Source: an uncultured Candidatus Peribacteria bacterium (GTDB lineage: Bacteria; Patescibacteriota; Gracilibacteria; Peribacterales; Peribacteraceae). From it: a DNA stretch of 64,000 nt. The notes beneath the pieces are model-generated. The model saw nothing but the letters and a program-made list of their open reading frames with translations, did no database searches and was not told the DNA's origin. Shown piece by piece: positions 4,672 to 55,064 of the stretch. The stretch is taken from NCBI GenBank assembly GCA_964601225.1, contig CAZRMM010000006.1, positions 20,240 to 84,239 on the forward strand, given 5' to 3'. Every line of letters begins with the position of its first letter. Within the stretch, counting starts at the first letter, position 1. Made by a program: the position numbers and the translations under genes.

Positions 4672-5032
4672 CGCACAGCGAAAGAAAGCGGAAAACTCGA
4701 CGTCGAGTGTTTTTTGAAATCGGATAAAGATACGCGTTGTTCGATGTATGACTTAGACGCGAGAGATCACTAATACGCCCTTCGCTTAAAGCTTTTTTCT
4801 TCGCATGACTCCATTTTTTCAAACGAGTCTCCCAAGCAATGGCGTCGTGCACGTACTGAAAATATGCCGAGTACACCAGAGTCACCGGTCGCCTCTTGTG
4901 CGTATAACTCCGGAGGTCAATTCCCTGCTGATGCTGCAAAACACGAGCAGCTATATCGTTGGTCACCCCCACATAGTACTTCCCATCCGCACAGCGCAGC
5001 ATGTAGACCCAGAAGTGATACGCGCGCCTCAT
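4652..5032 (-). CDS. GIY-YIG family small nuclease (YhbQ/UPF0213-like), 126 aa
   Basis: These are the C-terminal 126 codons of track ORF 4652..5401. The sequence FWVYMLRCADGKYYVGVTNDIAARVLQHQ...HKRRPVTLVY...AIAWETRLKKW fits the GIY..YVG..R..H...E pattern. ATG 5032 overlaps the stop of 5029..8124 (ATGA). Confidence 0.8.
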   Translation of the reverse strand: MRRAYHFWVYMLRCADGKYYVGVTNDIAARVLQHQQGIDLRSYTHKRRPVTLVYSAYFQYVHDAIAWETRLKKWSHAKKKALSEGRISDLSRLSHTSNNAYLYPISKNTRRRVFRFLSLCASSGSA

Positions 5033-8000: not shown

Positions 8001-8124
8001 GAGCGACGCAACAGCCGAACAGCGCGGCAAGGCGAAAACGTGAGCGAGAGAATGACATAGAAGACCACGATGACGGACCGTCCATGCCGCCGGGAGCGGA
8101 CAAAACCGAGGCTCTTCGGTTCAT
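5029..8124 (-). CDS. membrane-anchored extracellular nuclease: 4 lamin-tail-like domains + PKD-like + staphylococcal-nuclease domain
   Basis: 1031 aa with an N-terminal hydrophobic signal. Four LTD-like segments are present (ISEVLWMGSDLSASDEWIEI, ISELFPDPIGDDNGQWIELV, ALPNPEGKDTAESEWIGIV, ISEALSHPSSGSGEWIELVN). There is a PKD-like segment (DFDDGIVVSTCNPPSHRYVDTGRYFL) and an SNase core (VTEVLDGDTFDA..RVRLIGVDAPE..DPYGRVLAYV). A Lys-rich stretch and a C-terminal TM helix follow. Confidence 0.85.
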   Translation of the reverse strand: MNRRASVLSAPGGMDGPSSWSSMSFSRSRFRLAALFGCCVALFLVRHVGAAAVISEVLWMGSDLSASDEWIEIACTGSGSTPLCVLDGWTLTSLNTSGVEVSVVRFGTGTTIASGSALVVGRYPASSSRLLQDPAVVTSSMTLPNTKLLLRLWDADGNVRDTADDGIGDPMSGNNAKAPESKASMVRIDLASSGELKENWTVATTAQGLDPDALVLATPGYLPRSSASSSTASSFEASSSITSLPFSISSSSITSSGFFSSEPFYSTENSSTESDQSSSSVMAISLWISELFPDPIGDDNGQWIELVAQSDVPLDRVRIRDDKSGKTLPLGESGTLLLAGDRMLLSRAKIPAALSHAGGTVSLIDSVGSLLDQMTFPSLPEGVSYGRRSPSAIGEPYCVPSPGQENAIVAPAYVLDLQSGSYSAPAPHSINIQILPVPGQSLAGVSCAVDFDDGIVVSTCNPPSHRYVDTGRYFLTASIVNYCGTTVELTQEVAANGVSSSGSSSMAPASLSGPSLSESAVSEAERGAHMVFTGALPNPEGKDTAESEWIGIVSTDAGRKVFDGWSVRVEGKTVLLPRLILDGGTAKKLTAVELHITLRNTSGSLLLQDSSGQTQSRLHWSDAKPGQVILVRPERADGLRVRVTEVLDGDTFDAYAIDDPGTSLRVRLIGVDAPELKDRNPVVRSMADQSKKFLIALLEEKEVELNFDSNDQEDPYGRVLAYVNLSSGEHVQKAILTEGMAWVTTAFSFYRKTDYQAYETAAREAHRGIWVHPLFDQLIKDQKSGSGLLAYIWAQSDNFLSNTSGIRISEALSHPSSGSGEWIELVNTGTGAVDLRNWLLDDEESAGSKPWRIARPLPLVPGEYAVFPKSVTKLSLNDAGDIVRLLAPDGSLADRVSLPKLPPGSAYAWTGEREPADPEEAYCVTLAPTPGGPNRCVEPVTKKKKASVAKASAAKRKASAKTASKKEPILSFASLLPQAFDRPQEDVVFSSSSLAVSLSLSQVFVIVLAAMLAGALSGVAAAKGVTLARRV

Positions 8125-8359
8125 CGGATGTTTTAGGCATTCAGATAAGGAAAATTACGTTCCAAGCTCGCGCGGAACTCCTCTCCTCGACAATCAAAAC
8201 CCCCCGTGTACACTGACGAACGAACTCCCATGCTCTCGCTCCCCTTCCGTCACACCGACTCTTCCCTCGGAACGAACGTTTCCCGAGGTTCACGACAACC
8301 GTTTTTGCGTGTGACGCGTTCCTGAGAGCGTGGGAGGGTACATCTTGCCCCTCACCACC

Positions 8360-9916
8360 ATGCCACTCTTCATCCCCTTCGTCGCCCTCGTTCTAGGATC
8401 CGTTCTCGGCATCGCAGCCGGCAAGGTCCTGTTCTCGCAGGGAAAGAAAATCTCCGCCGCGCTCCAGCAAAAGATCTCCGAGAAGGAAAGCGAGCTCCAT
8501 AAGACCGAATCGAAACTTGCGGAAGCTCGCGGACAAATCAAAGCCGCCGAAGCCGAGGCCAAAGCCACCGCCAAAGAAATCTTAGCCGAGGCCAAGGCGA
8601 GCGTGAGCGAGATGGAAGCAAAAGCGGAAAAGGAGCTGGGTCGCATCGAAGAAAAAGAGCGAAGCTTGGACCAAAAAGTGAAGGAGGTTGAACGCCAGAG
8701 AAGCGTCGTCGACAAGCTGAAGACCGATCTCGAAGAAACGAAGAAAGAAGTGAGCGACGCGGCGGTTAAACATCGTGAGGCATTGGAGAACATCGCAAAG
8801 CTCTCGACCGACGAAGCCAAAAAGCAGTTGGAGAAGCAACTCGAGGAAGAGTTCTCCGGCCATTTCGCGAAACAGATCAAGCTGAAGAGGCAGGAGATGG
8901 AACAGGAAGTGGAAGAGAAGGCGAAGGAACTCCTTGCACAGGCGATGCAGCGCTATGCCTCCGAAGTGGCAAGCGAATCGACGGCGACCGTGGTGCAGCT
9001 CCCGAGCGACGACGTGAAGGGCAAGATCATCGGCAAGGAAGGCCGCAACATCACCGCCTTCGAGCACGCCACGGGCGTCGACGTGATCATCGACGACACC
9101 CCGGGCGCGATCATCATCTCGGGCTTCGACCTCGTGCGCCGCTACGTGGCCAAACTCGCGATGGAGAAACTCGTCCAGGACGGTCGCATCCAACCCGCGA
9201 GGATCGAGGAGATCGTCGTGAAGGTGAAGGAGCAGGTGGGCAAGATGATGATGGAATTCGGCAAGCGCGCCTGCGAGGAGCTCGGCATCGCCGGCTACGC
9301 CCCGGATCTCCTCAAAATCATCGGACGCCTCCGTTTCCGCACCAGCTACGGCCAGAACGTTCTCAAACACTCCGTGGAAATGGCCAACATCGGGCGCATG
9401 ATCGCCGAAGAAATGGGCGCCAACGTCTCGACCGTCGTCGAAGGCTGTCTGCTCCACGACATCGGCAAGGCGCTCGACCACGAGGTCAGCGGCACGCACG
9501 TGGAGATCGGCGTGGAGATCTGCAAGCGCTACAAGATTCGCCCCGAAGTGATCCACTGTGTCGCGGCGCACCACGAGGACATTCCGATGGAGACGCCCGA
9601 GGCGTTCATCGTCGCGGCGGCCGACGCGATCTCCGGCGCCCGTCCGGGTGCCCGCAGGGAATCGCTCGAAGAGTACTTCAAGCGCCTGAAGGCGCTCGAG
9701 GACGTGGCCAAGTCGTTCGAGGGCGTGCACAGGGCCTTCGCGATCTCCGCGGGCCGCGAGGTGCGCATCTTCGTCGACACGAAGAAAGTCGACGACCTGG
9801 GTCAGGAGAAGCTCGCCAAGGACATCGCCAAGAAGGTCGAAGCCGAGCTCACCTACCCGGGCGTCATCAAGGTCAACGTGATCCGCGAAAGGAGAATCGA
9901 GGAACTCGCGAAGTGA
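8360..9916 (+). CDS. rny: ribonuclease Y
   Basis: It has an N-terminal TM helix (MPLFIPFVALVLGSVLGIAAG) and a coiled coil. The KH segment is KIIGKEGRNITAFEHATGVDVIIDD. The HD domain is LLHDIGKA...CVAAHHED. The tail GREVRIFVD...YPGVIKVNVIRE is conserved. The track starts at GTG 8330; I prefer ATG 8360. Confidence 0.9.
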   Translation: MPLFIPFVALVLGSVLGIAAGKVLFSQGKKISAALQQKISEKESELHKTESKLAEARGQIKAAEAEAKATAKEILAEAKASVSEMEAKAEKELGRIEEKERSLDQKVKEVERQRSVVDKLKTDLEETKKEVSDAAVKHREALENIAKLSTDEAKKQLEKQLEEEFSGHFAKQIKLKRQEMEQEVEEKAKELLAQAMQRYASEVASESTATVVQLPSDDVKGKIIGKEGRNITAFEHATGVDVIIDDTPGAIIISGFDLVRRYVAKLAMEKLVQDGRIQPARIEEIVVKVKEQVGKMMMEFGKRACEELGIAGYAPDLLKIIGRLRFRTSYGQNVLKHSVEMANIGRMIAEEMGANVSTVVEGCLLHDIGKALDHEVSGTHVEIGVEICKRYKIRPEVIHCVAAHHEDIPMETPEAFIVAAADAISGARPGARRESLEEYFKRLKALEDVAKSFEGVHRAFAISAGREVRIFVDTKKVDDLGQEKLAKDIAKKVEAELTYPGVIKVNVIRERRIEELAK

Positions 9917-10215
9917 TTTCCCTGTCTCCGACGCTGATTCTTCGCCAGGCTTAGGATCAACGTCGTCCGCGAGCACTGCATCGAAGAGTTGACTCAGTAA
10001 GGCGCGTTCCCAAAGAGCACCTGTGACCTCCATACCCGTGAACGAAGGTCCCGAAGAGCTGGCGCCACCGTGTCGAATTCACGATTGAAGCATCGACCTT
10101 CCCCGCATGGGCTCCTCGCCCGCACTCCGGGAAAAGCTGTACAAGCGACATCGTTCGTGGCGCGACCCCGAGAAAATACGCTATTCTGCGGACCGTCTCC
10201 TTACGGTCCTGCAGC

Positions 10216-11376
10216 ATGCGACGCGACACCGCTCTCACCATCGCATCGATCCTCGTCGCGGGCGGCATCGTGCTCGGCCCGACCATCGCGGACTACCGTG
10301 CAAACCATCGGGCTCAGGTCACCGATCCCATCTACACGACGCCGGTTGATCCGGCGGTATTCAATACCAGAACTGTCCCGCTTCGCCGGGTAAGCGACGA
10401 CGCGCGGCGCGATTTCTGCTCGATGCGACAGCTCAGCGGGGGCAAGTGCGTTCCTGCGGAAATCCGTTGCCCGACCGGATGGAAAAAAGTATGCCAAGGC
10501 ACGTGCGCGTGCGGCGGAACCATCTGCCAGTGCGTGAAGGAGGAGAAAGCGAACGAAAACAACACCTGCGGAAATGGCATATGCGAACCGGGGGAGTACC
10601 GAACGGAACTGCCTCCGTGCGATCTGAGAAGCAGTGACTGCGTACAGGCGCCGCGTCTGATTCCCATTTGCCAGAAAGATTGCAATTCCCTCGCCCGTTC
10701 GGGAACGCAGGAAAGCATGTGTTACGACACGCGATACGCCGACTGTGCGAGAGGCGTCACCGATCGGAATCGCCTCAAGGACTGCGAGATACTTGCCGAA
10801 CGTTTCTGCGGATCGAACGGACAAAATCCCACCTGTACCGAGGCGCAGCTCAAGCGCTGCATCGACCAGCTTCTTGTGCGAAACACATCCGCGATCGACG
10901 CGCAGAGGATTTGCAATGCAGATTGCAACGGCACCTTCGTGGCGCCTCCCGGAAGCACTTGTACGAACGACCAGGTGAAAATCTGCGTGAAAAGACTCAT
11001 GGAACGGGGCACTTCCGCAACGGACGCAGAGCGCCAGTGCCTTGCCGATTGCGCCCCTCCACCGGCTCTGCCGCCTCCCCCGGCGCCCGTGGGCGGTTGC
11101 ACAGGAGAGGAATACGCGCAGTGCGTGGAGAGGGTGATTCTCCAGGGAACAAGGCTCTCCGACGCCCAGGATCTCTGCAAAAAAATCTGCAACGACATCC
11201 AGGGTGACCGCACCTACCTGGATCAGCTGAAAAAACGCGTCAGCGTGTGCGACTTCTCCAGCATCGGACGGTGCTGCGAAGTCGCAAAACAATTGGGAAA
11301 CGACGCGGAAAAGGACTGCCTCACACTTTGCGAACGCAAGGGCGTATCGATACAGGACAAGGCCCTGTGCAACTGA
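10216..11376 (+). CDS. membrane-anchored/secreted Cys-rich repeat protein (386 aa)
   Basis: N-terminal TM helix (ALTIASILVAGGIVLGP). There are about 40 Cys, including three ~31-aa modules C-T-x2-[QE]-x3-C-x3-L-x4-T-S-A-x-D-A-x-R-x-C-x-A-D-C. The antisense ORF 10201..11292 is Arg-rich. Confidence 0.6.
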   Translation: MRRDTALTIASILVAGGIVLGPTIADYRANHRAQVTDPIYTTPVDPAVFNTRTVPLRRVSDDARRDFCSMRQLSGGKCVPAEIRCPTGWKKVCQGTCACGGTICQCVKEEKANENNTCGNGICEPGEYRTELPPCDLRSSDCVQAPRLIPICQKDCNSLARSGTQESMCYDTRYADCARGVTDRNRLKDCEILAERFCGSNGQNPTCTEAQLKRCIDQLLVRNTSAIDAQRICNADCNGTFVAPPGSTCTNDQVKICVKRLMERGTSATDAERQCLADCAPPPALPPPPAPVGGCTGEEYAQCVERVILQGTRLSDAQDLCKKICNDIQGDRTYLDQLKKRVSVCDFSSIGRCCEVAKQLGNDAEKDCLTLCERKGVSIQDKALCN

Positions 11377-44819: not shown

Positions 44820-45056
44820 CCCTTCGTCAGGCTCAGGGTGACAGTCTTTGGGCGAGAGTCGGAGGGATGAGAAGTTTACCCTGAGCGAGTCCTGAGGAGC
44901 ATCGTGCGACGAAGGACGAGTCGAATGGGAATCCCTCCTCCCCAGCCACCCTTCGTCAGGCTCAGGGTGACAGTCTTCGGGCGAGAGTCGGCAGGATGAG
45001 ACGTTTTTCCTGAGTGAGGAGCGCCGAGCGCGACGAGTCGAAGAAAATCCGTTCCC
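44800..45056. repeat. 2 copies of a 129-bp tandem unit that begins inside the tRNA-Gln T-arm/3' end
   Basis: GAATCCCTCCTCCCCAGCCACCCTTCGTCAGGCTCAGGGTGACAGTCTT occurs at 44800 and again at 44929, with a single mismatch at the last base shown. The rest of the unit is diverged. Each unit contains the palindrome CCTTCGTCAGGCTCAGGGT...ACCCTGAG...GACGAAGG. Confidence 0.8.
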
Positions 45057-45127
45057 ATCGCCATTTTTCGAGAGTGGTATCCGGGAACGACGATGATTTT
45101 TTTCGGTGTTCAAAGCATGATTTTTCC

Positions 45128-45135
45128 GCTATAAT
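45128..45135 (+). promoter_or_regulatory. -10 element GCTATAAT, 7 nt from ATG 45143 (leaderless)
   Basis: The sequence reads tttttccGCTATAATaagggaaATG. Confidence 0.55.
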
Positions 45136-45142
45136 AAGGGAA

Positions 45143-46411
45143 ATGCTCAAAACAAACCCCCCACATCAGCGGATGATCTATCCACTGCTGTGCGGTTTCT
45201 TTTTCCTGCTTCTTCTCTTCCTCAGTGTCCGGTTGTATCAACGAAGCAAGGCGGTCGCGGAAAACCACATTCGCAATGCAGTTCTGGCCGTCGTCAGCAT
45301 TGCCGCGAACGACTTCGCCAAGGAATCCGGCGCCCTCGAATCGATGCGCACCCGCGCCGACATGACACGGAAGGATTTTTCCGCCGTGGTTCAGAGGCTG
45401 AAAGACATTCGCACGAGCATCCCCGGTATCCGTTTCGCATACATCATGCGAAGAACCGAGGATCCCATGACGCTGGAATTCATCGCCGATGCCGATTCCC
45501 TGGCGACGGACGGAGAATTGGACGTAAACGGGAACGGTACCGTGGACGATGATGAAAAGGGATCCTATCCCGGCGACTCCTACGACATCAGCGAGACGCC
45601 GGCGATGCGGGAATCCGCTTTCGAAGGACCAACGACCGACGCCGATTTTTCGCACGACTCCTGGGGGACATGGATTTCCGCGTACGCACCGATCCGCAGC
45701 ACCGACGGAAAAGTCGTCGGCATTCTGGGAATAGACATGGGATCCTCGGAGTATGACCGTTTCGTGAACGAAATATTTCCGCAAATTTTCGCTCTCCTCG
45801 GATCAGGATTGCTGTTCTGCCTTGGAGTGACATTCACGGGCTTCCTCCTGCATTTCAGCCGCGTGAGCGCGGAACAAAAAGCGGAGAGCACAGCGGAAGA
45901 GCTCCGGTCCGCGGAGGACGTACTGCACACCATTCTCGAAAACCTTCCCGTCGCGCTCTTCTGCAAGGACGTAAAAAACGGCTACCGCTTCAACATGTGG
46001 AACAAGGAAAGCGAAAAGATGTTCGGTCTGCAATCGAACGCCGTGATCGGAAAGAGCGACTACGATCTCTTTACGAAAACGGAAGCTGATTTCTTCCGAC
46101 AAACCGATGAGAAAGTGATGTCGCAGGGAAAGATCGTCGATATCCCCGTCGAGACGATCGTCTCGAAGAGTCTCGGAAAAATATTTCTTCACACGCGCAA
46201 GGTGCCCATCGTCGATCAGGACGGCAATCCCCAGTATTTGCTCGGCATCTCAGAAAACATCACCGACCGCAAAATCCACGACGATGAAATGAAAAAGAGG
46301 GCGATCGAGCTGCAGCAAATGAACGATCTGATGGTTGGCAGGGAACTTCGAATGCAGGAACTCAAAAAAGAAATTGAAAAACTTAAGGAAAAAAAAGATT
46401 CAACATCTTAA
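45143..46411 (+). CDS. sensor protein: TM - Cache-like periplasmic domain - TM - PAS - coiled coil, no output domain
   Basis: The periplasmic part looks Cache-like (IRFAYIMRR...PGDSYD...WGTWISAYAPIRSTDGKVVGILGIDM). The PAS part is LENLPVALFCKD...GKIFLHTRKVPIVDQDGNPQYLLGISENITDRK. It ends in ELQQMNDLMVGRELRMQELKKEIEKLK. There is no HisKA, GGDEF or other output domain. Confidence 0.75.
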   Translation: MLKTNPPHQRMIYPLLCGFFFLLLLFLSVRLYQRSKAVAENHIRNAVLAVVSIAANDFAKESGALESMRTRADMTRKDFSAVVQRLKDIRTSIPGIRFAYIMRRTEDPMTLEFIADADSLATDGELDVNGNGTVDDDEKGSYPGDSYDISETPAMRESAFEGPTTDADFSHDSWGTWISAYAPIRSTDGKVVGILGIDMGSSEYDRFVNEIFPQIFALLGSGLLFCLGVTFTGFLLHFSRVSAEQKAESTAEELRSAEDVLHTILENLPVALFCKDVKNGYRFNMWNKESEKMFGLQSNAVIGKSDYDLFTKTEADFFRQTDEKVMSQGKIVDIPVETIVSKSLGKIFLHTRKVPIVDQDGNPQYLLGISENITDRKIHDDEMKKRAIELQQMNDLMVGRELRMQELKKEIEKLKEKKDSTS

Positions 46412-46534
46412 GAGAAAAACCGAAAGCGCCATGCCCATCCCGCAGAACCATATCCTTCCCGTGAGGAAGAGAGTGACAATGGAAGATTGGGATTGCGCAA
46501 CCGCAACATCGTAGGAAAAGAGCACGAATTTGAC

Positions 46535-46568
46535 GCTCTTTCCATGCGTTTTTGCATCGCAAAAGGAG
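46535..46568 (+). promoter_or_regulatory. possible SD-sequestering leader hairpin upstream of yhhQ
   Basis: GCTCTTTCC (46535..46543) can pair with AAAGGAG (46562..46568, the only strong SD seen in the window). This encloses the inner hairpin ATGC-GTTTTT-GCAT (46544..46557). Confidence 0.35.
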
Positions 46569-46574
46569 AAATGA

Positions 46575-47276
46575 ATGCCTTTGTTCCCTATGCTCAAAAG
46601 CATGAACGGGTTTCTCTTGCTCCTCCTCGCGATCGCCGACCTCAGTTTCGTTTTTTTCTGCTGGTACCTCGGCGAAGAATGGGTGTACGCCTCAATCGTG
46701 GTCAACATGCTTCTCATCGTGTGCTTCGCGCAGAAACTCATAACGATTTTCGGTTTTATGACAAATGCCGGCAATGTTTTCTACGCCGCAACATTCCTGG
46801 CCATGGGAATCATTATCGAGAACAAAGGTGCCACGCGCGCCTACAAAATGGTGTGGCTGGGTCTGGTTGTTCTCATGACGTTCATTCTGTTCAGTCAAAT
46901 CGTCCTGGGGATGGAAACCGCAAGCTCCTCATTGGCAATTTCCCGTTCGATGAACTCACTTTTTTCCGCCAGCCCCCGCGTCGCCCTTGCTTCATTTCTT
47001 GGCTACAGTTTGAGCCAAACTTTCAATATTTGGTGTTATGATTTTATACGAAAAAAAACGGGCGACGGCTATCTGTGGTTCCGAAAAAACGTCAGTACTT
47101 GGTTTGCCCAAATCGTGGATTCTGTGATTTTTTTCAGCATTGTCTTTGCCGGAGTGGTCGATTTTACAAGCGTTCTGCAGATCATGATCGTAGGACTGAT
47201 TGTAAAGATCGTCGTTGCCATTCTCGATACGCCGTTCCTCTACCTCAGCAGAGTCATCCGCCCGCTGGAAGAGTAA
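46575..47276 (+). CDS. yhhQ: queuosine-precursor transporter (YhhQ/DUF165 family)
   Basis: It has six or more TM segments. WFRKNVSTWFAQIVDSVIFFSIVFAG ... KIVVAILDTPFLY matches the conserved YhhQ C-terminal half. Confidence 0.8.
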   Translation: MPLFPMLKSMNGFLLLLLAIADLSFVFFCWYLGEEWVYASIVVNMLLIVCFAQKLITIFGFMTNAGNVFYAATFLAMGIIIENKGATRAYKMVWLGLVVLMTFILFSQIVLGMETASSSLAISRSMNSLFSASPRVALASFLGYSLSQTFNIWCYDFIRKKTGDGYLWFRKNVSTWFAQIVDSVIFFSIVFAGVVDFTSVLQIMIVGLIVKIVVAILDTPFLYLSRVIRPLEE

Positions 47277-47327
47277 AAACCGGCAGCGATACTTGGGGGA
47301 GATTCGTTTTTAAAAAATCGACTTTTG

Positions 47328-47336
47328 TGCTACAAT
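47328..47336 (+). promoter_or_regulatory. extended -10 element TGCTACAAT (followed by AAGAG)
   Basis: ttttgTGCTACAATAAGAG lies 20 nt upstream of ATG 47357. Confidence 0.6.
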
Positions 47337-47356
47337 AAGAGCAAATACCCATATTT

Positions 47357-48934
47357 ATGAAGGCGCCACAAACCTCCCGGCAATTCTCTATTCTTGCCTG
47401 GGGAATTTTTGTTCTGTGCATCGCCGCGACAATTCTGTGCGGGGCCATCGTCCGACGCTCCGAGAACGAATCCGCACAATTTGCCTTCACCTCAAAAGTG
47501 GATGTCGTTTTGCAGACGATCGCCAACCGAATGATCGACTATGAATCCGTGCTGAACGGGGTCAAAGGACTTTACTTGGCATCGAAATCCGTCGAGAGGG
47601 ATGAATTTGCAAGCTACCTGTCCTCGCTGCAACTTTCCCGCAGACTTCCAGGCATCCAGGCGATCGGCTACAGCGAATTCGTCGGATCAAAGGAAAATCT
47701 CAAGGCATTTGAGGAATCCGTACGGGCCGAGGGGTTTTCCAATTTTGTCGTCACGCCGGAAAATGATCGCAATGAATACCATTCCATCAGATTCATAGAA
47801 CCGTTTGACGAACGCAATCGGCGCGCCTTCGGCTTCGACATGCATACGGAAAGCACACGCGCCGCCGCGATGGATCGAGCGCGCGACACGGGAGTCGCAA
47901 TCCTATCGGGCAAAGTCACGCTCAAGCAGGAAAACAACTCACAACCCCAGGCGGGAACGCTCCTCTATTTACCCATCTACCGCAAGGGAGAGCCCGTCGA
48001 TACGCCGGAACAGCGTCGTGCCGCTTTCCAGGGATTCGCCTATGCGGCTTTCAGAATGGAAGATTTGTTCACGGCGATTCTGAGCACGGTCGACACCTCG
48101 TACATCGATCTCGAAATTTATTCCGTAACGGGAAAAAACGGGGAGGAGGATCTCCTATACACAAATGAAGACCCCGAGGAAAAAGAATCATACCTTCCCG
48201 AAATCGCAGGAACGCATACGCTGCGTATCGGAGGGCAATCATGGTCCGTCCGTTATCACACATCGAAAGAATTCGACAGGTCGCACTCTCATCTCAGCTC
48301 AATCATCGCTTGGGCATCCGGAACTGTCGTCAGTATTCTGGTTTTTACGATTGCCATGCTCCTCAGCTTGGCAAAAGAAACAGCAGAGGGCCGGGCACAA
48401 AAGATTGCGCAGGAAATGGCAAAGAACGAGGACACGTGGAAACTCGCGATGGAGGCGAGCGGCGATGCCGTGTGGGAATGGAATCTCTTAAGCAATCAAT
48501 GGAGGAACAGCGAGCGCGGCGCCCGCATGCTCGGATACAATCCGGGCGAATTGAAAGATGACGAGCTTGCGTGGCCGAAAGTGGTGCATCCCGACGATTT
48601 TGCAAAAATCACGACGGAACGAGAGCGTCACATCCAAAACCAAAACGAGATTTTCTTCTGCGAAGTACGCATGCGCTGCAAAGAAGGGAATTATAAGTGG
48701 GTCTCTCTTCGAGGAAGGGTGGTGGTGCGCTCGGCAAACGATAGGCCCGTACGCATGATCGGCACCACGACCGATATCACAGAACGAAAAGCATACGAAG
48801 AAAATCTTCAAGAGAAGAATGCGGAACTTGAGCGCATGAACGAGTTGATGGTCGGTCGCGAACTGAAAATGCGTGATATGAAAGATGAATTGAAAAAATT
48901 ACGCGGCTCTACGGACGATTCCGCGTCGTCATAA
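47357..48934 (+). CDS. sensor protein: CHASE - TM - PAS - coiled coil, no output domain
   Basis: The CHASE-like region is LPGIQAIGYSEFV...YHSIRFIEPFDERNRRAFGFDM...RARDTGVAILSGKVTL...LLYLPIY. The PAS region is WEWNLLSNQW...VHPDD...YKWVSLRGRVV. The C-terminus ELERMNELMVGRELKMRDMKDELKKLR is near-identical in pattern to that of 45143..46411. Confidence 0.75.
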   Translation: MKAPQTSRQFSILAWGIFVLCIAATILCGAIVRRSENESAQFAFTSKVDVVLQTIANRMIDYESVLNGVKGLYLASKSVERDEFASYLSSLQLSRRLPGIQAIGYSEFVGSKENLKAFEESVRAEGFSNFVVTPENDRNEYHSIRFIEPFDERNRRAFGFDMHTESTRAAAMDRARDTGVAILSGKVTLKQENNSQPQAGTLLYLPIYRKGEPVDTPEQRRAAFQGFAYAAFRMEDLFTAILSTVDTSYIDLEIYSVTGKNGEEDLLYTNEDPEEKESYLPEIAGTHTLRIGGQSWSVRYHTSKEFDRSHSHLSSIIAWASGTVVSILVFTIAMLLSLAKETAEGRAQKIAQEMAKNEDTWKLAMEASGDAVWEWNLLSNQWRNSERGARMLGYNPGELKDDELAWPKVVHPDDFAKITTERERHIQNQNEIFFCEVRMRCKEGNYKWVSLRGRVVVRSANDRPVRMIGTTTDITERKAYEENLQEKNAELERMNELMVGRELKMRDMKDELKKLRGSTDDSASS

Positions 48935-48941
48935 AACCCTC

Positions 48942-51326
48942 ATGGCAAAGACCCTCTCCATTCAGGCCCGACTTATCCTCCTGCTCCTGCCGGCGGTTTT
49001 CGCGATCACGGTCGTTTCCCCCCTCGTGTTTTTCGGCATCGTCGGCACCGCGATCGAAGATTCGAGCATCCGGGAAAATCTTCTCGTTCTTAAAAAAAAC
49101 AGCGAAACCACGAGGCAATTCGTCGAAAGTGACAAGCGCCTCATTTTGGCTCTTCGCGATGTGCCGCCGATTCAAGGAATGATTCGTTCGAGGAAAACGG
49201 GTTTGGACAAGCAGGACAACAGTACGTACGAACAGTGGTCCACGCGATTGTCGCAGATTTTCCGAGCCCATTTGAAAGCGAACAATTCCATTTACCAGTT
49301 GCGAGTCTTCGACGAGAAAGGCAACGAAGAAGTTCATGCGGAGCTTATCGGCGGGCAGATCGTCATCACGCCGCCGAATCTTCTGCAAAACAAAAAGGAT
49401 CGTCCGTACTTTCTCGAGGCGATGCAGCTCTCGAACGACGAACTCTATGTGTCGAGCGTCGAGCTCAATCAGGAGTACGGTAAAATTGAAATGCCGTACG
49501 TCCCGGTCTTGCGCATCGCAACGCCCGTTTTCGACTCAGAGGGGAAAAGAAAGGGCGTGATTATGGGAAACTTTCTCGCCGGCGAGATATTTTCGCCCCT
49601 GCGGGAACAGTCCGCGATCCTGGAAAATTTCGTCGTGGATCACGGGGGATTCTTCGCCCTGCACCCAAACGCAGAAATGGAATTCGGGGCTGACCTCAAA
49701 AAGCCAGAAGCGACAATCGTCAACGAATTCCCGACACTCGCCCCGCTGATTCGGAAATCGAAAAACGGAAACTATTACGATCAGGGCACCGAGCGCGAAT
49801 TCCTGTGGGAGACCATCAAATACGGACCGAATGCCGAACAAACATGGACCGTCATTTCCTCCATAGACCGAATGGCTCTGGTCGCCCCGATACAGCGGCT
49901 GAGAAGCATCATCATCGCGGTATCGACGATGCTTGCCTTTTCGATCATCGGTCTTATCGCCTACTCGGCGCACAATCTTTCCTCGCCTATTCGTCATCTC
50001 ACGAAGGCCGTAAGCGCCGTCGCAGCCGGAAAAATTGACACGGTCATTCAGGAAAATGCGAACACGGCGGAAATGGCGGAGCTCAATCAGGGATTTAAAA
50101 AAATGCAAAACGCACTCAATCAAACATATACGGACATGGAGGGGAGAATTCAAGAAAGAACGAAAGACGTCGCCTATGCCCTTGCGAAACAGAAGCAATC
50201 CAATCTGGCAATGCTGAACATCATGGAGGACCTGGAGAATGCAAAAACTCAATTGCAGAACGAGGCGACGGAGACGAAAAAATTCCAGAACGCCGTGGAG
50301 GGCTCGACGGACGCAATCGCCATTACAAGCATCGAAGGAAAGATCGTTTTCGTCAACAGAGCCTTCGAAATACTGACGGGATACAGCTCGGAAGAAGTCG
50401 TCGGAAAAAATCCCAAGATTCTCCGGAGCAACCAAACAAAAGAGGAGACCTACAGCCAAATGTGGAAGGCAATTCTTGAAGGGAAGGTTTTCGCCACGGA
50501 TGATATAGTCAACAAACGAAAGGACGGTACGCTCTACAATGCAGAACTGACCGTCTTCCCGGTACTCAAGAACAACAAGCCCATCTACTTCGTGGGCGTG
50601 CAACGGGACATCACACAACGAAAGAATGAGGATCGGGTGAAATCCGAGTTTATTTCTCTGGCTTCGCATCAATTACGAACGCCGCTCACGGCCCTGCGCC
50701 TGTCTCTTGAACTTCTGTCGAAGGGCCGTTTCGGTCCTCTCACGGAGGAACAGGAGAATATTGTCCAGAGCGGTCTCCGATACGCTGTGGCGCTGGCAGA
50801 GACAATCCACACCATGCTCTCGATCTCGCGCGTGGAAGTGGGAAAGGCATCCATCGATGCGACTGCAATCCACGTGCAAGAATTCCTACGGGAAATTTCC
50901 AAAGAGCTGTCATACAGCGCTTCGCAAAAATCCCTGCAGGTCGTCGTCGATTGCCCGGAAGACATCGTCATTCATACCGACAAAAACTTCCTGAAAGAAA
51001 TTATCGCGAACCTCACGAGCAACGCGATCCGCTACACGCCCGAGAAGGGCAGGATCGAGATTCGCGCCCTTGTCGTCGAAAATAATTTGAAGATTTCCGT
51101 TCAGGACAACGGCTATGGCATTCCCGCGGAAGCACAAGAACGGATCTTCCAAAAATTCTTCCGGGCAGACAACGCGCAAAAGAAAGTGCCGGACGGAACC
51201 GGCCTCGGTCTGTATCTCGTACAATCGCTGGTCTCAATAATCGGCGGGAGGATCTCCTTCGTCTCCGAGGAAAACAAAGGAACGACCTTCACCCTTTCCC
51301 TCCCCTATTCCCCTTCGCAATCGTGA
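48942..51326 (+). CDS. sensor histidine kinase: Cache-like - TM - HAMP - PAS - HisKA - HATPase
   Basis: The H-box is SEFISLASHQLRTPL, the N-box is LTSNAIRYTP and the G-boxes are VQDNGYGIP and GTGLGLYLV. No response regulator is present in the window. Confidence 0.85.
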   Translation: MAKTLSIQARLILLLLPAVFAITVVSPLVFFGIVGTAIEDSSIRENLLVLKKNSETTRQFVESDKRLILALRDVPPIQGMIRSRKTGLDKQDNSTYEQWSTRLSQIFRAHLKANNSIYQLRVFDEKGNEEVHAELIGGQIVITPPNLLQNKKDRPYFLEAMQLSNDELYVSSVELNQEYGKIEMPYVPVLRIATPVFDSEGKRKGVIMGNFLAGEIFSPLREQSAILENFVVDHGGFFALHPNAEMEFGADLKKPEATIVNEFPTLAPLIRKSKNGNYYDQGTEREFLWETIKYGPNAEQTWTVISSIDRMALVAPIQRLRSIIIAVSTMLAFSIIGLIAYSAHNLSSPIRHLTKAVSAVAAGKIDTVIQENANTAEMAELNQGFKKMQNALNQTYTDMEGRIQERTKDVAYALAKQKQSNLAMLNIMEDLENAKTQLQNEATETKKFQNAVEGSTDAIAITSIEGKIVFVNRAFEILTGYSSEEVVGKNPKILRSNQTKEETYSQMWKAILEGKVFATDDIVNKRKDGTLYNAELTVFPVLKNNKPIYFVGVQRDITQRKNEDRVKSEFISLASHQLRTPLTALRLSLELLSKGRFGPLTEEQENIVQSGLRYAVALAETIHTMLSISRVEVGKASIDATAIHVQEFLREISKELSYSASQKSLQVVVDCPEDIVIHTDKNFLKEIIANLTSNAIRYTPEKGRIEIRALVVENNLKISVQDNGYGIPAEAQERIFQKFFRADNAQKKVPDGTGLGLYLVQSLVSIIGGRISFVSEENKGTTFTLSLPYSPSQS

Positions 51327-51643
51327 CAAAGATTCCCGTTGCGGGGGATGAAGAACGTATTGGAAAGCTTTACGCTTTCTCGATCCTCCGATGTCCGACA
51401 TGAACGAATGAGGGACTCGTCCGGCTCAAGAGCGAAGAATTCGGAGCCATCGATTTCATTGTAAAAAGTGATACAGGGAAGCGATCTTGGGGTGAAAATC
51501 CGGGAATATTTCAATTCCCGTCAATCAGTGACTCCAAACTGCGGAATCATCTCCGCCACCGAGAGTACTTGTCTGTTCGTCAGAAGAATTTTTTTGAACA
51601 CAAAATTTGATCATAGTTTTTCCCATTTTCGGCTGAGATCTTC

Positions 51644-51675
51644 AAAAAAAGGACGACCGTGGTCGTCCCTTTTTT
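51644..51675. terminator. bidirectional intrinsic terminator
   Basis: The sequence is AAAAAAA-GGACGAC-cgtg-GTCGTCC-c-TTTTTT. It lies 21 nt after the hcp-like stop on the minus strand and 318 nt after the kinase stop on the plus strand. Confidence 0.75.
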
Positions 51676-51696
51676 AGTCATGAAACACTTAGACAA

Positions 51697-52284
51697 TTAC
51701 TTCTTGGCGGCCTTGAGATCGTAGGTGGCCTTGATTGCAGTGTCCAAACTACCGTCACTCTTTTGCGGACTGTATGAAAATTCGATTTTCGTGAAATTCA
51801 AACTGAGCGACTCCATCGGACGATCGGAGCCACTCTGAGTCATTAGAGAAGAAACCATGACATCCGCGAGTGTTACCTGATAGTACTCCTGGCCAGAAGA
51901 ATTTTTGCAGCTCAGTTTTGCTGACTTCATGTGCGTCCCGGAGACGGCATTCAGAAAGAGCTGAGGAGAAGTTTTATCGATGCGCTTCGTCACCATGAAA
52001 CTAATATCGCTCATCGAAACTTTTCCTGCTCCCATGCCGCTGCTGCCAACGGATGTAGCATTCGACATTCCCCAGCTGAAAGACTGGACTTCGATTGAAC
52101 CGGTGGCGTTTTCCCCTTGGACGCCATCGAGCCAAAGAGTGCAGCCCGGCATGGAAGTTGCCATGGAAGTGGGCGAGATCGTTTTCGCGGTTGTTCTCGT
52201 AGATTGCGCCAATGCCGTCGAGGCGCCGAAGAGAGCCGCAACCACGCCCGCGGAAAGCAGGAGGAATGATGTTCGTTGTTTCAT
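51697..52284 (-). CDS. hcp: Hcp-family (T6SS tube / phage tail-tube fold) protein with N-terminal Sec signal peptide
   Basis: LWLDGVQGENATGSIEVQSFSWGMSN...GMGAGKVSMSDISFMVTKRIDKTSPQLFLNAVSGTHMKSAKLSC...YYQVTLADVMVSSL...ESLSLNFTKIEFSYSPQKSDGS aligns by eye along the whole length with Hcp1-type proteins. The preceding MKQRTSFLLLSAGVVAALFGASTALAQS is a canonical signal peptide. I start at ATG 52284. Confidence 0.8.
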   Translation of the reverse strand: MKQRTSFLLLSAGVVAALFGASTALAQSTRTTAKTISPTSMATSMPGCTLWLDGVQGENATGSIEVQSFSWGMSNATSVGSSGMGAGKVSMSDISFMVTKRIDKTSPQLFLNAVSGTHMKSAKLSCKNSSGQEYYQVTLADVMVSSLMTQSGSDRPMESLSLNFTKIEFSYSPQKSDGSLDTAIKATYDLKAAKK

Positions 52285-52480
52285 AGAAGAAAAGAAAGAA
52301 AGATAGTCTAAGACTAGCACGCGTTTGACGTTTGTTGAGCCTCTCAACACAGGAACGTGCAAAAAAAACAAGGAGAATCGCTCTTCGTAAATTTCGTTTC
52401 AGCTGCTCTTGATTTGAACAATCCCGCACATGATGTGTTATCAAAATTTTTCTTTGCTTTCGAAAAAAGCCCTTTGGTTT

Positions 52481-52489
52481 GTGTACAAT
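52481..52489 (+). promoter_or_regulatory. -10 element GTGTACAAT
   Basis: It lies 39 nt upstream of ATG 52529. Confidence 0.45.
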
Positions 52490-52528
52490 AGGAATCCCTT
52501 TTCCTCTCTACTCTTCTTTCCTCTATCT

Positions 52529-52966
52529 ATGATCCACCTCATCGCCGTTGGGCAGTACGTCGGCACGCACATGCTCGGCATTCTCCTCGCGATCCTTGCG
52601 ACGTACGTCATCGGATTCATCTGGCACGGTCCGCTCTTCGGCAAGCAGTGGATGGCCTACAACAACATCACGCCGCCGAAGAAGGAAGATATGAAATTCT
52701 CCATGATGCTCCCCGGTCTCGCCGCAAACTTCGTCATGGTCTTCGTGCAATCGGCCGTTCTCGGACGAACGTTCCAGATCGTGAGCCTGCGGGGCATCGT
52801 CGACGCGTTGATCATCGCCGTCATTCTCTGGCTCCCCTTTACCGCGCTTGCATTCGCCAATTCGTACGCCTGGGAAGGAAAAAAGCCAGGCCACTGGTGC
52901 CTGGACGCCGGATACTACCTCATCTCAATATTGGCGGTGTCCGCGATCCTCTACATCACCCTCTGA
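52529..52966 (+). CDS. DUF1761-like membrane protein (145 aa)
   Basis: Four TM segments. GFIWHGPLFGKQWM is typical of DUF1761. Confidence 0.55.
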   Translation: MIHLIAVGQYVGTHMLGILLAILATYVIGFIWHGPLFGKQWMAYNNITPPKKEDMKFSMMLPGLAANFVMVFVQSAVLGRTFQIVSLRGIVDALIIAVILWLPFTALAFANSYAWEGKKPGHWCLDAGYYLISILAVSAILYITL

Positions 52967-53070
52967 AAACACGCCTCTTTTTCAAAAATCCCGCACCGTT
53001 CGATGCGGGATTTTTTGATGCGGTTGCGCGACGTTGCCTCAAGAACGGGCGCATGGGTAGAATGGATCCC

Positions 53071-54114
53071 ATGATTGCTTCCGCCCGCAGATTCGCTTCC
53101 TTCTTTTTTCTCGCGCTCGTTTTCGTAACGACGGTTCCCGCCGCGACCGCGCAGGGAATGTCCTTCAAGGACCTGCCGACATCGCACTCCGCCTACGCCG
53201 CGGTGCAGTACCTCACGGGCCTCGGCATCCTCAAGGGGTACGACGACGGCACGTTCCGCCCCGACAAGAAGGTGGCGCGGTCCGAAGCGATCAAGATCAT
53301 CGTGAGCGCCGTGGCCCAGGGGAAGACCTTCACGCCCGGAACTTCTTCCTACACCGATATCCCCGACGGCGCGTGGTACGAGCCGTACGTGGCATACGCC
53401 TGGAAGGAGCTCGGCATCGTCGACGGCCCGCCGACCGCCACCCTTTTCCGGGGAGACAAGAACGTCACGAAGGTGGAGTTTTTGAAGATGCTCCTGCTCG
53501 CGTACAAGGTGGATCCGAAGTCGTTTGGCGAGATCCAATTGCCGCTCGCGAGCGACGTGACGGATCCGGGCGCCTGGTACTACCCCTACATGCGCTACGC
53601 GATCACCGCGTCGATGACCACCGTGCAATCCGACGGCGCCATGGGTCCGAGCCAGGAACTCAGCCGCGCGCAAGTGGCGCTCCTCCTGCACCGCTTCCTC
53701 ACCTACCGCGACGGCCGCCGCACGCAGGCGCTCCTCTCCTCCACGGAAAGCGATCTCGTGAACGTACTCAAGATGCTCGAGGCGAAGGATCTGTCGCAGG
53801 CCGAATACGCGTCGGCGCGCGCGCTGCTCGCCGCCCGCGGCGCGCTGCAATCGAAGCCGGACACGCCGCTCGTGCAAGGCGCGCTCAAGACGACGGAAGC
53901 CTTCCGCGCGCTGGTGCGCGCGTACCGCGCCGGCTCGGAACAGCGCTTCGACGACGCGGTGACGCTCGCCAAGGAATCCTGGTCGCTTGCCGAGGCGGCG
54001 CGCCAGAAGAGCTCCGATCTCGACGGCCTCTCGTCGCAGGTGCAGGGACTCGCGAAGGAAATGGCCGACAGCGCGCGCGACCTCAAGACGAAGTCTGCGA
54101 TGCCGACACCCTAA
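53071..54114 (+). CDS. secreted protein with three S-layer-homology (SLH) domains and a helical C-terminal region
   Basis: It has a signal peptide. The three SLH units are FKDLPTSHSAYAAVQYLTGLGILKGYDDGTFRPDKKVARSEAIKII, YTDIPDGAWYEPYVAYAWKELGIVDG and ASDVTDPGAWYYPYMRYAI...LSRAQVALLLHRFL. The start could be 53053, 53062 or 53071. Confidence 0.75.
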   Translation: MIASARRFASFFFLALVFVTTVPAATAQGMSFKDLPTSHSAYAAVQYLTGLGILKGYDDGTFRPDKKVARSEAIKIIVSAVAQGKTFTPGTSSYTDIPDGAWYEPYVAYAWKELGIVDGPPTATLFRGDKNVTKVEFLKMLLLAYKVDPKSFGEIQLPLASDVTDPGAWYYPYMRYAITASMTTVQSDGAMGPSQELSRAQVALLLHRFLTYRDGRRTQALLSSTESDLVNVLKMLEAKDLSQAEYASARALLAARGALQSKPDTPLVQGALKTTEAFRALVRAYRAGSEQRFDDAVTLAKESWSLAEAARQKSSDLDGLSSQVQGLAKEMADSARDLKTKSAMPTP

Positions 54115-54131: not shown

Positions 54132-55064
54132 ATGAAAAAGAACGGATCGGTTGTCCTGACGCTGAGCCTCCTCATGAACGTCTTCGCGGGTCCCATGCTC
54201 TACAGTACGTGGATCCGCAGTGCGCAGTTTCCGCTGCTTTCTCCCCGCATTTTCGCGCAGAATCGCAATGACATCATCATTAACTTCACGACGCTGCGCG
54301 GGCAGATACGGACCTTTATGGAAAATCAGAAGGACATGCACGTGGGCGTGTACTTCGAATATCTGCCGTCGGGCGTCTCCGTCGGCGTGAACGAGAAAGA
54401 CAACTTCATCTCCGCAAGCCTCATCAAGGTGCCTCTCATCATGGGCATCACGAAGATGATCGAACGGGGAAAGATTTCCCCGTCGCAAACCATCACGCTC
54501 GAAGCATCGGACCTCGACAGAAATTTCGGCCAGCTTTGGCAACGCGGCGCGGGCGCAACGCTCACGGTACAGGAGGCGATCGACCTTACGCTAAAGGAAT
54601 CCGACAACACGGCGGCGCGGGCGCTCGACAGGCTCGTAACCAACGATCCGATCCGCGAAGTGTACGACGCTCTCGACATTCCGACGGATTGGACGGGGCC
54701 CTTGCCCGTCGTGAGTCCGAAGAACTACTCCTCGGTCTTCCGTTGCCTGTACCTCTCGTGCTTCCTCAGCTTCGAGCATTCGCAGCAGATTCTGCGCACC
54801 CTCACGCAGACCGCATTCAACGAGAGCGGCATCGCAGCGGGCGTCCCGCAATTCGTGCCCGTCGCGCACAAAATCGGAATGTTCGATTCGTCGAAATCGG
54901 ATGAGCGCGTGCGGCTGGACTGCGGCATCGTCTACGTTCCCAAACGCCCGTACGTCCTCTGCATCCTCGGCGAGGCAAAAACGGGAACCGAGAACCAGAT
55001 CAATGAGTTCGCGCAGCAAATGTCGGACCTGATCTTCCGCTACGTGAGTACCTTCACGCCCTGA
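54132..55064 (+). CDS. class A beta-lactamase-fold serine hydrolase
   Basis: The SxxK motif is SASLIKV, the SDN motif is ESDNTAA and the KTG-like motif is HKIGM. It has an N-terminal hydrophobic segment. These are the C-terminal 310 codons of track ORF 53373..55064. Confidence 0.7.
   Translation: MKKNGSVVLTLSLLMNVFAGPMLYSTWIRSAQFPLLSPRIFAQNRNDIIINFTTLRGQIRTFMENQKDMHVGVYFEYLPSGVSVGVNEKDNFISASLIKVPLIMGITKMIERGKISPSQTITLEASDLDRNFGQLWQRGAGATLTVQEAIDLTLKESDNTAARALDRLVTNDPIREVYDALDIPTDWTGPLPVVSPKNYSSVFRCLYLSCFLSFEHSQQILRTLTQTAFNESGIAAGVPQFVPVAHKIGMFDSSKSDERVRLDCGIVYVPKRPYVLCILGEAKTGTENQINEFAQQMSDLIFRYVSTFTP

Follow-up and report, generated by a model that had tools for sequence, protein, structure and literature searches.

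A Hcp-family protein with a predicted Sec signal peptide in a Peregrinibacterium, and its widespread leader-bearing relatives

Hcp is a hallmark substrate for type VI secretion systems (T6SS) that carries no signal peptide, and its detection in culture supernatants is the standard test of T6SS activity. What, then, is to be made of an Hcp-like protein that begins with an apparent signal peptide of the general secretory (Sec) pathway? The question is raised by a 195-codon gene on the minus strand of contig CAZRMM010000006.1, assembled from an uncultured Candidatus Peribacteria bacterium, of which we analysed a 64-kb stretch (hereafter, the window). A preliminary description of this DNA, made from the letters and their open reading frames (ORFs), had presented the product as an orphan Hcp protein with a Sec signal peptide and a Thr/Ser linker, and every peptide string that it quoted is found in the translation. 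Our results support the reading of a Sec-type Hcp without nearby T6SS genes, and we consider it very likely that the window protein is exported and independent of type VI secretion. They also place it in a large class of leader-bearing relatives.

Both its sequence and its predicted fold, a beta-barrel with one helix and a long loop, place the window protein in the Hcp family (PF05638). The Pfam profile T6SS_HCP aligned with residues 52-171 over profile positions 4-129 of 129, scoring 97.1 bits (cut-off 23.5; E=1.3e-27), and the closest solved relative by sequence is Hcp1 of P. aeruginosa (1Y12, E=6.6e-24). An AlphaFold2 model based on 63 homologues had mean predicted local distance difference test (pLDDT) values, taken over 10-residue blocks, of ~90 or more at residues 51-70 and 101-170 and of 51-77 in the loop at 71-100, with pLDDT below 50 at residues 1-32 and 39-41. 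When this model was compared with the PDB using Foldseek, the top 50 matches were all Hcp entries (8YUN, 1Y12, 4TV4, 5XEU) or engineered Hcp1 fusions (4KSR, 7O42), with best values of E ~1e-12 and a template modelling (TM) score of up to 0.85. The near-invariant G-A-G-K loop and the C-terminal strand are retained in the alignment. Sequence profile, solved relatives and model thus agree with the full-length Hcp1-type domain that had been aligned by eye, and the profile score is strong.

The tail tubes of phages and extracellular contractile injection systems (T4 gp19 and lambda gpV type) have a distantly related fold. Matches to tail tubes in BFVD had E values of about 2.7e-6 to 1e-4, TM scores of 0.4-0.55 and root-mean-square deviations of 7-12 Å, so the resemblance to Hcp is far the stronger of the two (TM up to 0.85 versus at most 0.55). 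A phage origin of the gene was considered and rejected, given these weak fold matches, the absence of relatives among the 2.9 million viral contigs of IMG/VR and the lack of flanking phage genes. Despite the lack of an IMG/VR relative, the protein matches phrog_27303, a family of unknown function (E=2.3e-16), which indicates that some phage genomes carry Hcp-like genes.

Upstream of the Hcp domain, residues 1-26 read as a classical Sec leader cleaved by signal peptidase I. The basic residues K2 and R4 precede an uncharged 15-residue core (F7-A21), and A24-L25-A26 stands immediately before Q27, where the chain continues with QS. There is no twin arginine, and the leader is therefore not of the twin-arginine translocation type. 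Two further modes of processing or attachment were rejected: for a lipoprotein cleaved by signal peptidase II, the sole N-terminal cysteine, C48 (in S-M-P-G-C), lies 27 residues past A21 and lacks a Leu at position -3, and for sortase or PEP-CTERM anchoring, the chain ends (...ATYDLKAAKK) right after the Hcp domain with no sorting motif. Between leader and domain, residues 27-46 contain 6 Thr and 4 Ser among 20 residues. The Thr/Ser linker of the preliminary description is therefore present, but spans ~21 residues (27-47) rather than ~25.

This architecture is shared by the closest relatives of the window protein. P0001 (69% identity), P0003 (66%), P0002 (62%) and P0129 (53%) have the same layout of leader, A-x-A-Q-[ST]-(x)-R, linker, M-x-G-C and Hcp domain, with a linker of roughly 15-27 residues rich in Thr, Ser, Ala and Pro. 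Among orthologues the length and sequence of the linker vary and its composition is retained. DNA was available for four of these loci (the window, L001/P0001, L002/P0002 and L029/P0003), giving six pairs in a codon alignment. Across leader and linker all insertions and deletions are in frame, and the AxA-Q[ST]-R motif is kept. Nonsynonymous divergence was lower than synonymous divergence in the leader (pN<pS) in all six pairs, with dN/dS of 0.19-0.83; in the Hcp domain, dN was 0.19-0.36 and dN/dS was 0.08-0.28 in the four pairs with unsaturated dS.

Automated gene calls tell a different story at two of the four orthologous loci. At L029 (9884-10468), P0003 was called as a leaderless protein of 155 aa, while the upstream frame is open and encodes MRTSSLATIAAVTTLVVLAGTATVHAQTR... 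The window gene itself is represented in the protein collection by a 105-aa product only (P0125, residues 91-195), a call that must be wrong, since a third of the Hcp domain would be missing. As both leaders were lost in gene calling, leader-bearing Hcp proteins are probably under-counted in protein databases. Frame and substitution pattern indicate a leader that is both translated and conserved among orthologues. The upstream start at ATG 52284, for which a downstream codon had been named as the alternative, is backed by the in-frame orthologous leaders, the AxA-Q[ST]-R motif and pN<pS. The Sec-type leader proposed from the window alone is thus borne out by its tripartite pattern and its maintenance in frame at four loci, and the precursor would be expected to be exported and cleaved.

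The host lineage and gene content of the window were examined for any sign of a T6SS. The phosphomannomutase/phosphoglucomutase encoded in the window is 63-67% identical to proteins of Candidatus Peregrinibacteria/Peribacteraceae, and every named top match that gives a lineage belongs to Peregrinibacteria/Peribacteraceae; by these matches, the host is a Peregrinibacterium of the candidate phyla radiation (CPR), a bacterium of groundwater type with a tiny genome. Other window proteins fit a CPR genome, as many lack Pfam families and the set includes an SLH-domain protein, a lamin-tail/nuclease giant, EF-Tu and PurM. The complete genomes published for the related class Peribacteria carry genes for an S-layer, sortase, type II secretion/type IV pili and one disulfide-forming protein, and the paper describing them mentions neither a T6SS nor an outer membrane (PMC4736985). 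In tblastn searches of the 64-kb window with the proteins of a Gemmatales T6SS cluster, TssB, TssC, TssE, TssF, TssG, ClpV and ImpE gave no match, and Hcp was the sole query that did (53.6% identity, E=3e-41). Pfam scans found no T6SS family in 30 further ORF translations, all of the largest included; TssK, TssJLM and VgrG were looked for through these scans only. Within the reach of these searches, the window holds no other T6SS gene, as had been stated at the outset.

We then surveyed relatives for leaders, as the preliminary description had suggested. Two protein searches were pooled to give 185 single-domain proteins, and a leader was scored where an N-terminal extension with an uncharged hydrophobic 10-mer preceded the Hcp domain. 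By this criterion 124 of the 185 are leader-bearing and 55 are leaderless, so the window protein is not a one-off. Among species-representative genomes, scanned with a 7-sequence alignment, leader- or anchor-bearing forms were found in Saccharimonadia, Staskawiczbacteria, Actinomycetes, SAR202, Gaiellaceae and Akkermansiaceae, and another occurs in a Saprospiraceae metagenome-assembled genome (MAG). Leaderless forms were found in Gemmatales, Fimbriiglobus, Pyrinomonadaceae, Rubrivivax and others. The species-representative genomes held no close orthologue (>50% identity), and the window's own clade is known from metagenome contigs only. In a neighbour-joining tree the clade of five to which the window belongs is entirely leader-bearing, and the leader state switches at least 17 times, a figure to be read with caution because the tree is rough and some leaderless entries are perhaps truncated calls.

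Leader-bearing and leaderless forms differ in gene context. The leaderless Gemmatales protein P0016, which is 49% identical to the window protein by BLASTP (53.6% by tblastn), sits in a complete T6SS cluster between TssB-TssC and ImpE-TssE-TssF-TssG-ClpV, and eight further leaderless loci also have T6SS neighbours. Genes for TssB/C/E/F/G were thus present near 9 of 16 leaderless loci but near none of 12 independent leader- or anchor-bearing loci, the window included (Fisher p=0.003; neighbours judged within the available flanking DNA). Taken together, the leader-bearing Hcp homologues are a large and widespread class that is apparently unstudied: the full-text literature searched, which leaves out most subscription journals, yielded no account of Hcp proteins that bear signal peptides, occur in monoderms or have tandem domains, and the leader-bearing homologues go under the name 'type VI secretion system tube protein Hcp' in public annotation.

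Several further groups came to light among the relatives. An actinobacterial class of 277-303 aa (P0008, P0011, P0014, P0019, P0026 and others) combines an Arg-rich cytoplasmic N-terminus, one transmembrane segment, a Cys-containing segment, a collagen-like G-P-x stalk and a C-terminal Hcp domain, and one uncultured Actinomycetes MAG (L010) has two Hcp matches ~2 kb apart, at 7702-8163 and 9605-10468. A leader-bearing subclass of 210-240 aa (P0051, P0057, P0062, P0067, P0073, P0077, P0081, P0082 and others) has ~45 additional residues inserted behind the first strand (...DQNGACSFKLTKPGKYKASLLLPAVQK...), which may form a further small domain on the ring. Chloroflexota and Gaiellaceae MAGs also contain leaderless orphan Hcp genes with no flanking T6SS structural gene (L012, Chloroflexi, 20 kb; L020, Limnocylindria, 12 kb; L009; L013). 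These leaderless, cytoplasmic orphans in probably monoderm lineages form a third category that is explained by none of the readings considered here.

The best-scoring relatives in a library of 1.84 billion proteins bear on whether such proteins form rings, as they contain six tandem Hcp domains in chains of ~1000-2100 aa. A tally of phmmer domains gave 27 six-domain proteins, along with 20 of two, 8 of three, 9 of four and 7 of five domains, those with four or five of which may be fragments. Pfam recovered six Hcp stretches in all four of the six-domain proteins checked. The six-domain proteins (P0109-P0124 and P0383-P0399) come from Pirellulales and include P0388 of the isolate Pirellulaceae bacterium SH467. 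Their N-terminus is R-rich and followed by 'LE-x-R-x-LL', a planctomycete extracellular motif, with PF07595 on record for P0135 (Pirellulales), and Ig-like, cadherin-like or RTX modules are fused to some tandem-Hcp proteins. Exactly six Hcp domains in one chain with extracellular hallmarks argues that ring formation is a selected property, and on domain count and composition these proteins look like single-chain Hcp rings. We found no paper on them in the literature covered by our search.

Conservation within the single domain points the same way. Per-site conservation in leader-bearing and leaderless proteins is closely correlated (Spearman rho=0.82, with similar mean entropy), which, together with the retained G-A-G-K loop and C-terminal strand, suggests that the constraints of a working Hcp still apply. 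Solved chimeras with a C-terminal Hcp1 (4KSR, 6AP1, 7O42) indicate that N-terminal additions to Hcp are tolerated. The window protein would thus be predicted to assemble into hexameric rings. In an alignment of 180 relatives, moreover, a Cys in the column of Cys48 was always accompanied by Cys126 (8/8); all eight proteins are leader-bearing and represent at least four lineages at no more than 50% identity. This pairing is consistent with a Cys48-Cys126 disulfide, which would form outside the cytoplasm.

We propose that an Hcp-fold protein has left the type VI pathway and now uses the general secretory route. The precursor would be made with its 26-residue Sec signal peptide, pass the cytoplasmic membrane unfolded via SecYEG and be cleaved by signal peptidase I after A-L-A (Ala26). 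The mature protein would then fold outside the cytoplasm of the Peregrinibacterium, with the disulfide probably pinning strand 1 to the central sheet, and form hexameric rings as other Hcp proteins do, with a flexible, Thr/Ser-rich tail of ~21 residues at the N-terminus of every subunit. The site of action of such rings would be the cell surface or the medium, and they would work with neither sheath nor baseplate nor spike. We regard the complete sequence of Sec export, cleavage, ring assembly and T6SS independence as reasonably probable. As to their role, our guess would be that the rings form a scaffold on the cell surface or outside the cell, or else bind another exported molecule in their lumen and carry it, an idea by analogy with what Hcp rings do in T6SS.

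A number of observations weigh against this account. Export and cleavage are argued from sequence rules and conservation, and hexameric assembly is a prediction. The absence of T6SS genes applies to the 64-kb window, taken from a contig of 90.5 kb, and a T6SS or another contractile system may be encoded elsewhere in the genome. The NCBIfam TssD model TIGR03344 gave 45.9 bits, under its cut-off of 58.9; a score of this size would fit divergence from working tube proteins and is silent on function. No conserved gene neighbourhood pointing to a partner or cargo was seen across L001, L002-5, L029 and the window. Exported forms show no general enrichment in cysteine, with 0.84 Cys per domain compared to 1.36 in leaderless forms. 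Finally, S6-A26 amounts to 21 uncharged residues, so an uncleaved leader could serve as an N-terminal membrane anchor, with six Thr/Ser-rich stalks tethering the ring to the cytoplasmic membrane on its outer face. The flexible linker resembles a stalk, and the actinobacterial class (P0008, P0014, L010) clearly has a transmembrane segment and collagen-like stalk before Hcp. However, the hydrophobic core proper is only ~15 residues long and is broken by G13 and G20, and AxA-Q[ST]-R is kept after the core in 4/4 orthologous loci while other leader residues drift, as expected of a peptidase site and not of an anchor. We therefore consider anchoring unlikely and favour a cleaved leader.

A true start further downstream, at Met41, Met45 or Met91, would make the protein an ordinary tube subunit of the cytoplasm that serves a T6SS or other contractile system elsewhere in the genome, of which the window covers a part. 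The 105-aa (P0125) and 155-aa (P0003) calls would agree with this, as would the lack of a Shine-Dalgarno sequence before ATG 52284. A start at Met91, however, would cut away a third of a domain that is aligned by Pfam and by all homologues, and every orthologous locus has an open frame upstream, with the same leader architecture, in-frame indels and pN<pS. With T6SS neighbours at 0 of 12 leader-bearing loci and no T6SS reported for Peribacteria (PMC4736985), a downstream start appears very improbable. The exported protein might instead be a decoy, or sponge, that binds Hcp-carried effectors or other T6SS parts from Gram-negative attackers. CPR bacteria spend their lives attached to other bacteria or in their midst, and a protein with 49-54% identity to a planctomycete T6SS Hcp of working type and an intact G-A-G-K loop could retain lumen binding. 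Against a decoy, the window protein had no match in PADLOC, whose library covers phage defence only and thus leaves an anti-phage role unsupported too, no immunity-like genes are linked to it at the window or orthologous loci, and the six-domain planctomycete proteins with adhesin-type modules look structural rather than defensive. We give this proposal little weight. We find it barely credible that the gene is what remains of a T6SS gene acquired horizontally, now decaying and without function, although it lies in a stretch of lower G+C (~0.49-0.52 versus 0.58 for the whole window) and planctomycete T6SS genes are its closest relatives without a leader. The reading frame is uninterrupted, the Hcp domain has diverged far less at nonsynonymous than at synonymous sites (dN/dS 0.08-0.28 in the four unsaturated pairs), site-wise constraint matches that of working Hcp (rho=0.82), and the gene has its own terminator.

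An exported, T6SS-independent ring subunit would differ in several respects from known Hcp proteins. Compared to Hcp1/TssD (1Y12, PF05638), the window protein has the same full-length domain and predicted fold, including the G-A-G-K loop and C-terminal strand, but adds a Sec-type leader and Ser/Thr linker, has a clade-specific Cys pair, lacks five residues of the D-x-x-H-x-G loop, and occurs without nearby T6SS genes in a CPR host for whose lineage no T6SS is reported (PMC4736985). It departs from a working TssD in three defining features: the TIGR03344 score, the T6SS gene context and the absence of a signal peptide. Stand-alone genes outside a main T6SS cluster also encode the orphan Hcp and Hcp-ET proteins of Proteobacteria, the latter with a toxin extension at the C-terminus. 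As far as is known, those proteins are leaderless, have a T6SS elsewhere in the genome and exit through it. The window protein instead has an N-terminal export signal and no toxin extension, in a host not known to carry a T6SS. The six-domain Pirellulales proteins (P0388, P0135) likewise place the Hcp domain in proteins with extracellular hallmarks, but combine six domains in one chain with an N-terminal motif of planctomycete type and, in many cases, Ig, cadherin or RTX modules, whereas the window protein has a single domain. An earlier survey of Hcp by Howard et al. in 2021, the item closest to the leader-bearing class in the literature searched, was limited to Gram-negative bacteria and removed PEP-CTERM-bearing Hcp genes without studying them (PMC8262886). 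Such genes share with the window gene an Hcp domain and signals for the general secretory route; the window protein lacks a C-terminal sorting signal (...YDLKAAKK) and falls outside the Gram-negative set.

The features of the locus are collected in Table 1. The frame runs from ATG at 52284 to a TAA stop at 51699-51697, between a convergent histidine-kinase gene (48942-51326) and a divergent DUF1761 gene (52430-52966). That the gene has its own terminator was confirmed by a scan listing the hairpin at 51651-51668, ~30 nt past the stop and followed by seven T; an A-run on its other side makes the terminator probably bidirectional. No purine-rich Shine-Dalgarno sequence precedes ATG 52284. CT-rich tracts also abut the leader ATG at the orthologous loci L001 (before 3320), L002 (3590) and L029 (9884), those of L001 and L002 sharing ATTCTTCCCCC..TTCT, and may be a lineage-specific translation-initiation or regulatory element. 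The palindrome noted in the preliminary description is present, although the ATG lies 19 rather than 18 nt away from it. With five other short palindromes in the same 200 bp it is unremarkable in itself, and no obvious counterpart was seen in the 200-nt upstream stretches of the orthologous loci, which were not searched specifically for it. The TAGACT hexamer, proposed as -10-like, was not picked up by a promoter scan, and neither this hexamer nor the palindrome has statistical or comparative support.

Table 1. Positions of the Hcp gene, its encoded parts and its flanking elements in the window
Feature	Position	Strand	Basis
Hcp precursor coding sequence, 195 aa plus stop, monocistronic	51697..52284	(-)	ORF listing, sequence, PF05638
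Signal peptide, residues 1-26 (MKQRTSFLLLSAGVVAALFGASTALA), predicted signal peptidase I cut after A26 (A-L-A/Q)	52207..52284	(-)	sequence reading, orthologues
Thr/Ser-rich linker, probably disordered, residues 27-47 (QSTRTTAKTISPTSMATSMPG)	52144..52206	(-)	composition, low pLDDT
Hcp domain, residues 48-195, starting at Cys48	51700..52143	(-)	Pfam, PDB sequence search, AlphaFold2 and Foldseek
Cys48 codon, first residue of beta-strand 1	52141..52143	(-)	alignment of relatives
Cys126 codon (in LSCKN), putative disulfide partner of Cys48	51907..51909	(-)	alignment of relatives
Intrinsic terminator	51644..51674	(-)	7-bp GC-rich stem GGACGAC/GTCGTCC, 4-nt loop, seven T on the gene's strand
Pyrimidine-rich (CT) tract, 19 nt, abutting the ATG	52285..52303	(-)	sequence
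6-1-6 palindrome TAGTCT-T-AGACTA of unproven significance, 19 nt before the ATG	52304..52316	(.)	palindrome scan

The gene lies in a low-G+C block (window ~45000-52900) with values of 0.48-0.53, compared to 0.58 for the whole window and >0.6 past 54 kb. The block, which may be a horizontally acquired island, contains genes for a PAS protein, a Vut_1 transporter, a CHASE-PAS sensor and a Cache/HAMP/PAS histidine kinase in addition to Hcp and DUF1761. Just past the DUF1761 gene are genes for an SLH-domain protein with its own signal peptide (53040-54114, plus strand) and a class-A-like beta-lactamase-family protein (54200-55064, plus strand). At L029, an SLH protein is encoded ~9 kb from the Hcp orthologue; these positions would be a weak indication of a possible tie between the exported Hcp and the S-layer. 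Elsewhere in the window, a 1031-aa protein (5029-8124, minus strand) joins staphylococcal-nuclease and lamin-tail domains; presumably exported, it fits a scavenging CPR lifestyle.

The locus places an Hcp domain that is ~50% identical to a tube protein of working type on the general secretory route, in a lineage without a reported T6SS. With two thirds of the nearest 185 single-domain relatives bearing leaders, across CPR, Actinomycetota, Chloroflexota, Verrucomicrobiota and Bacteroidota, the rule that Hcp has no signal peptide appears, from predicted leaders, to be broken at scale, and such proteins would be common rather than a curiosity. A PF05638 match or the label 'T6SS tube protein Hcp' in MAGs should therefore not be counted as evidence of a T6SS, and the loss of leaders by gene callers, at two of four orthologous loci here, hides the class in databases. 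The class suggests a role for Hcp rings outside the cell as well, independent of type VI secretion, and raises the testable question of what activity an Hcp ring has there without sheath or spike. For such work, the six-domain planctomycete proteins would offer a natural single-chain ring in cultured isolates.

A broader reading, which we hold as speculative and somewhat doubtful, is that Sec-exported Hcp rings are a widespread T6SS-independent part of extracellular machines, in which single domains would assemble six-fold and chains of two, three or six domains would need fewer polypeptides. On the same tentative footing, rings or stacks of rings on the surfaces of monoderm, CPR and planctomycete cells could serve as a conduit, a cargo carrier or an attachment platform. 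If this were true, the ring of an episymbiotic Peregrinibacterium could belong to its apparatus for contact with the host cell, and the T6SS tube protein would be one specialisation of a broader family of ring proteins.

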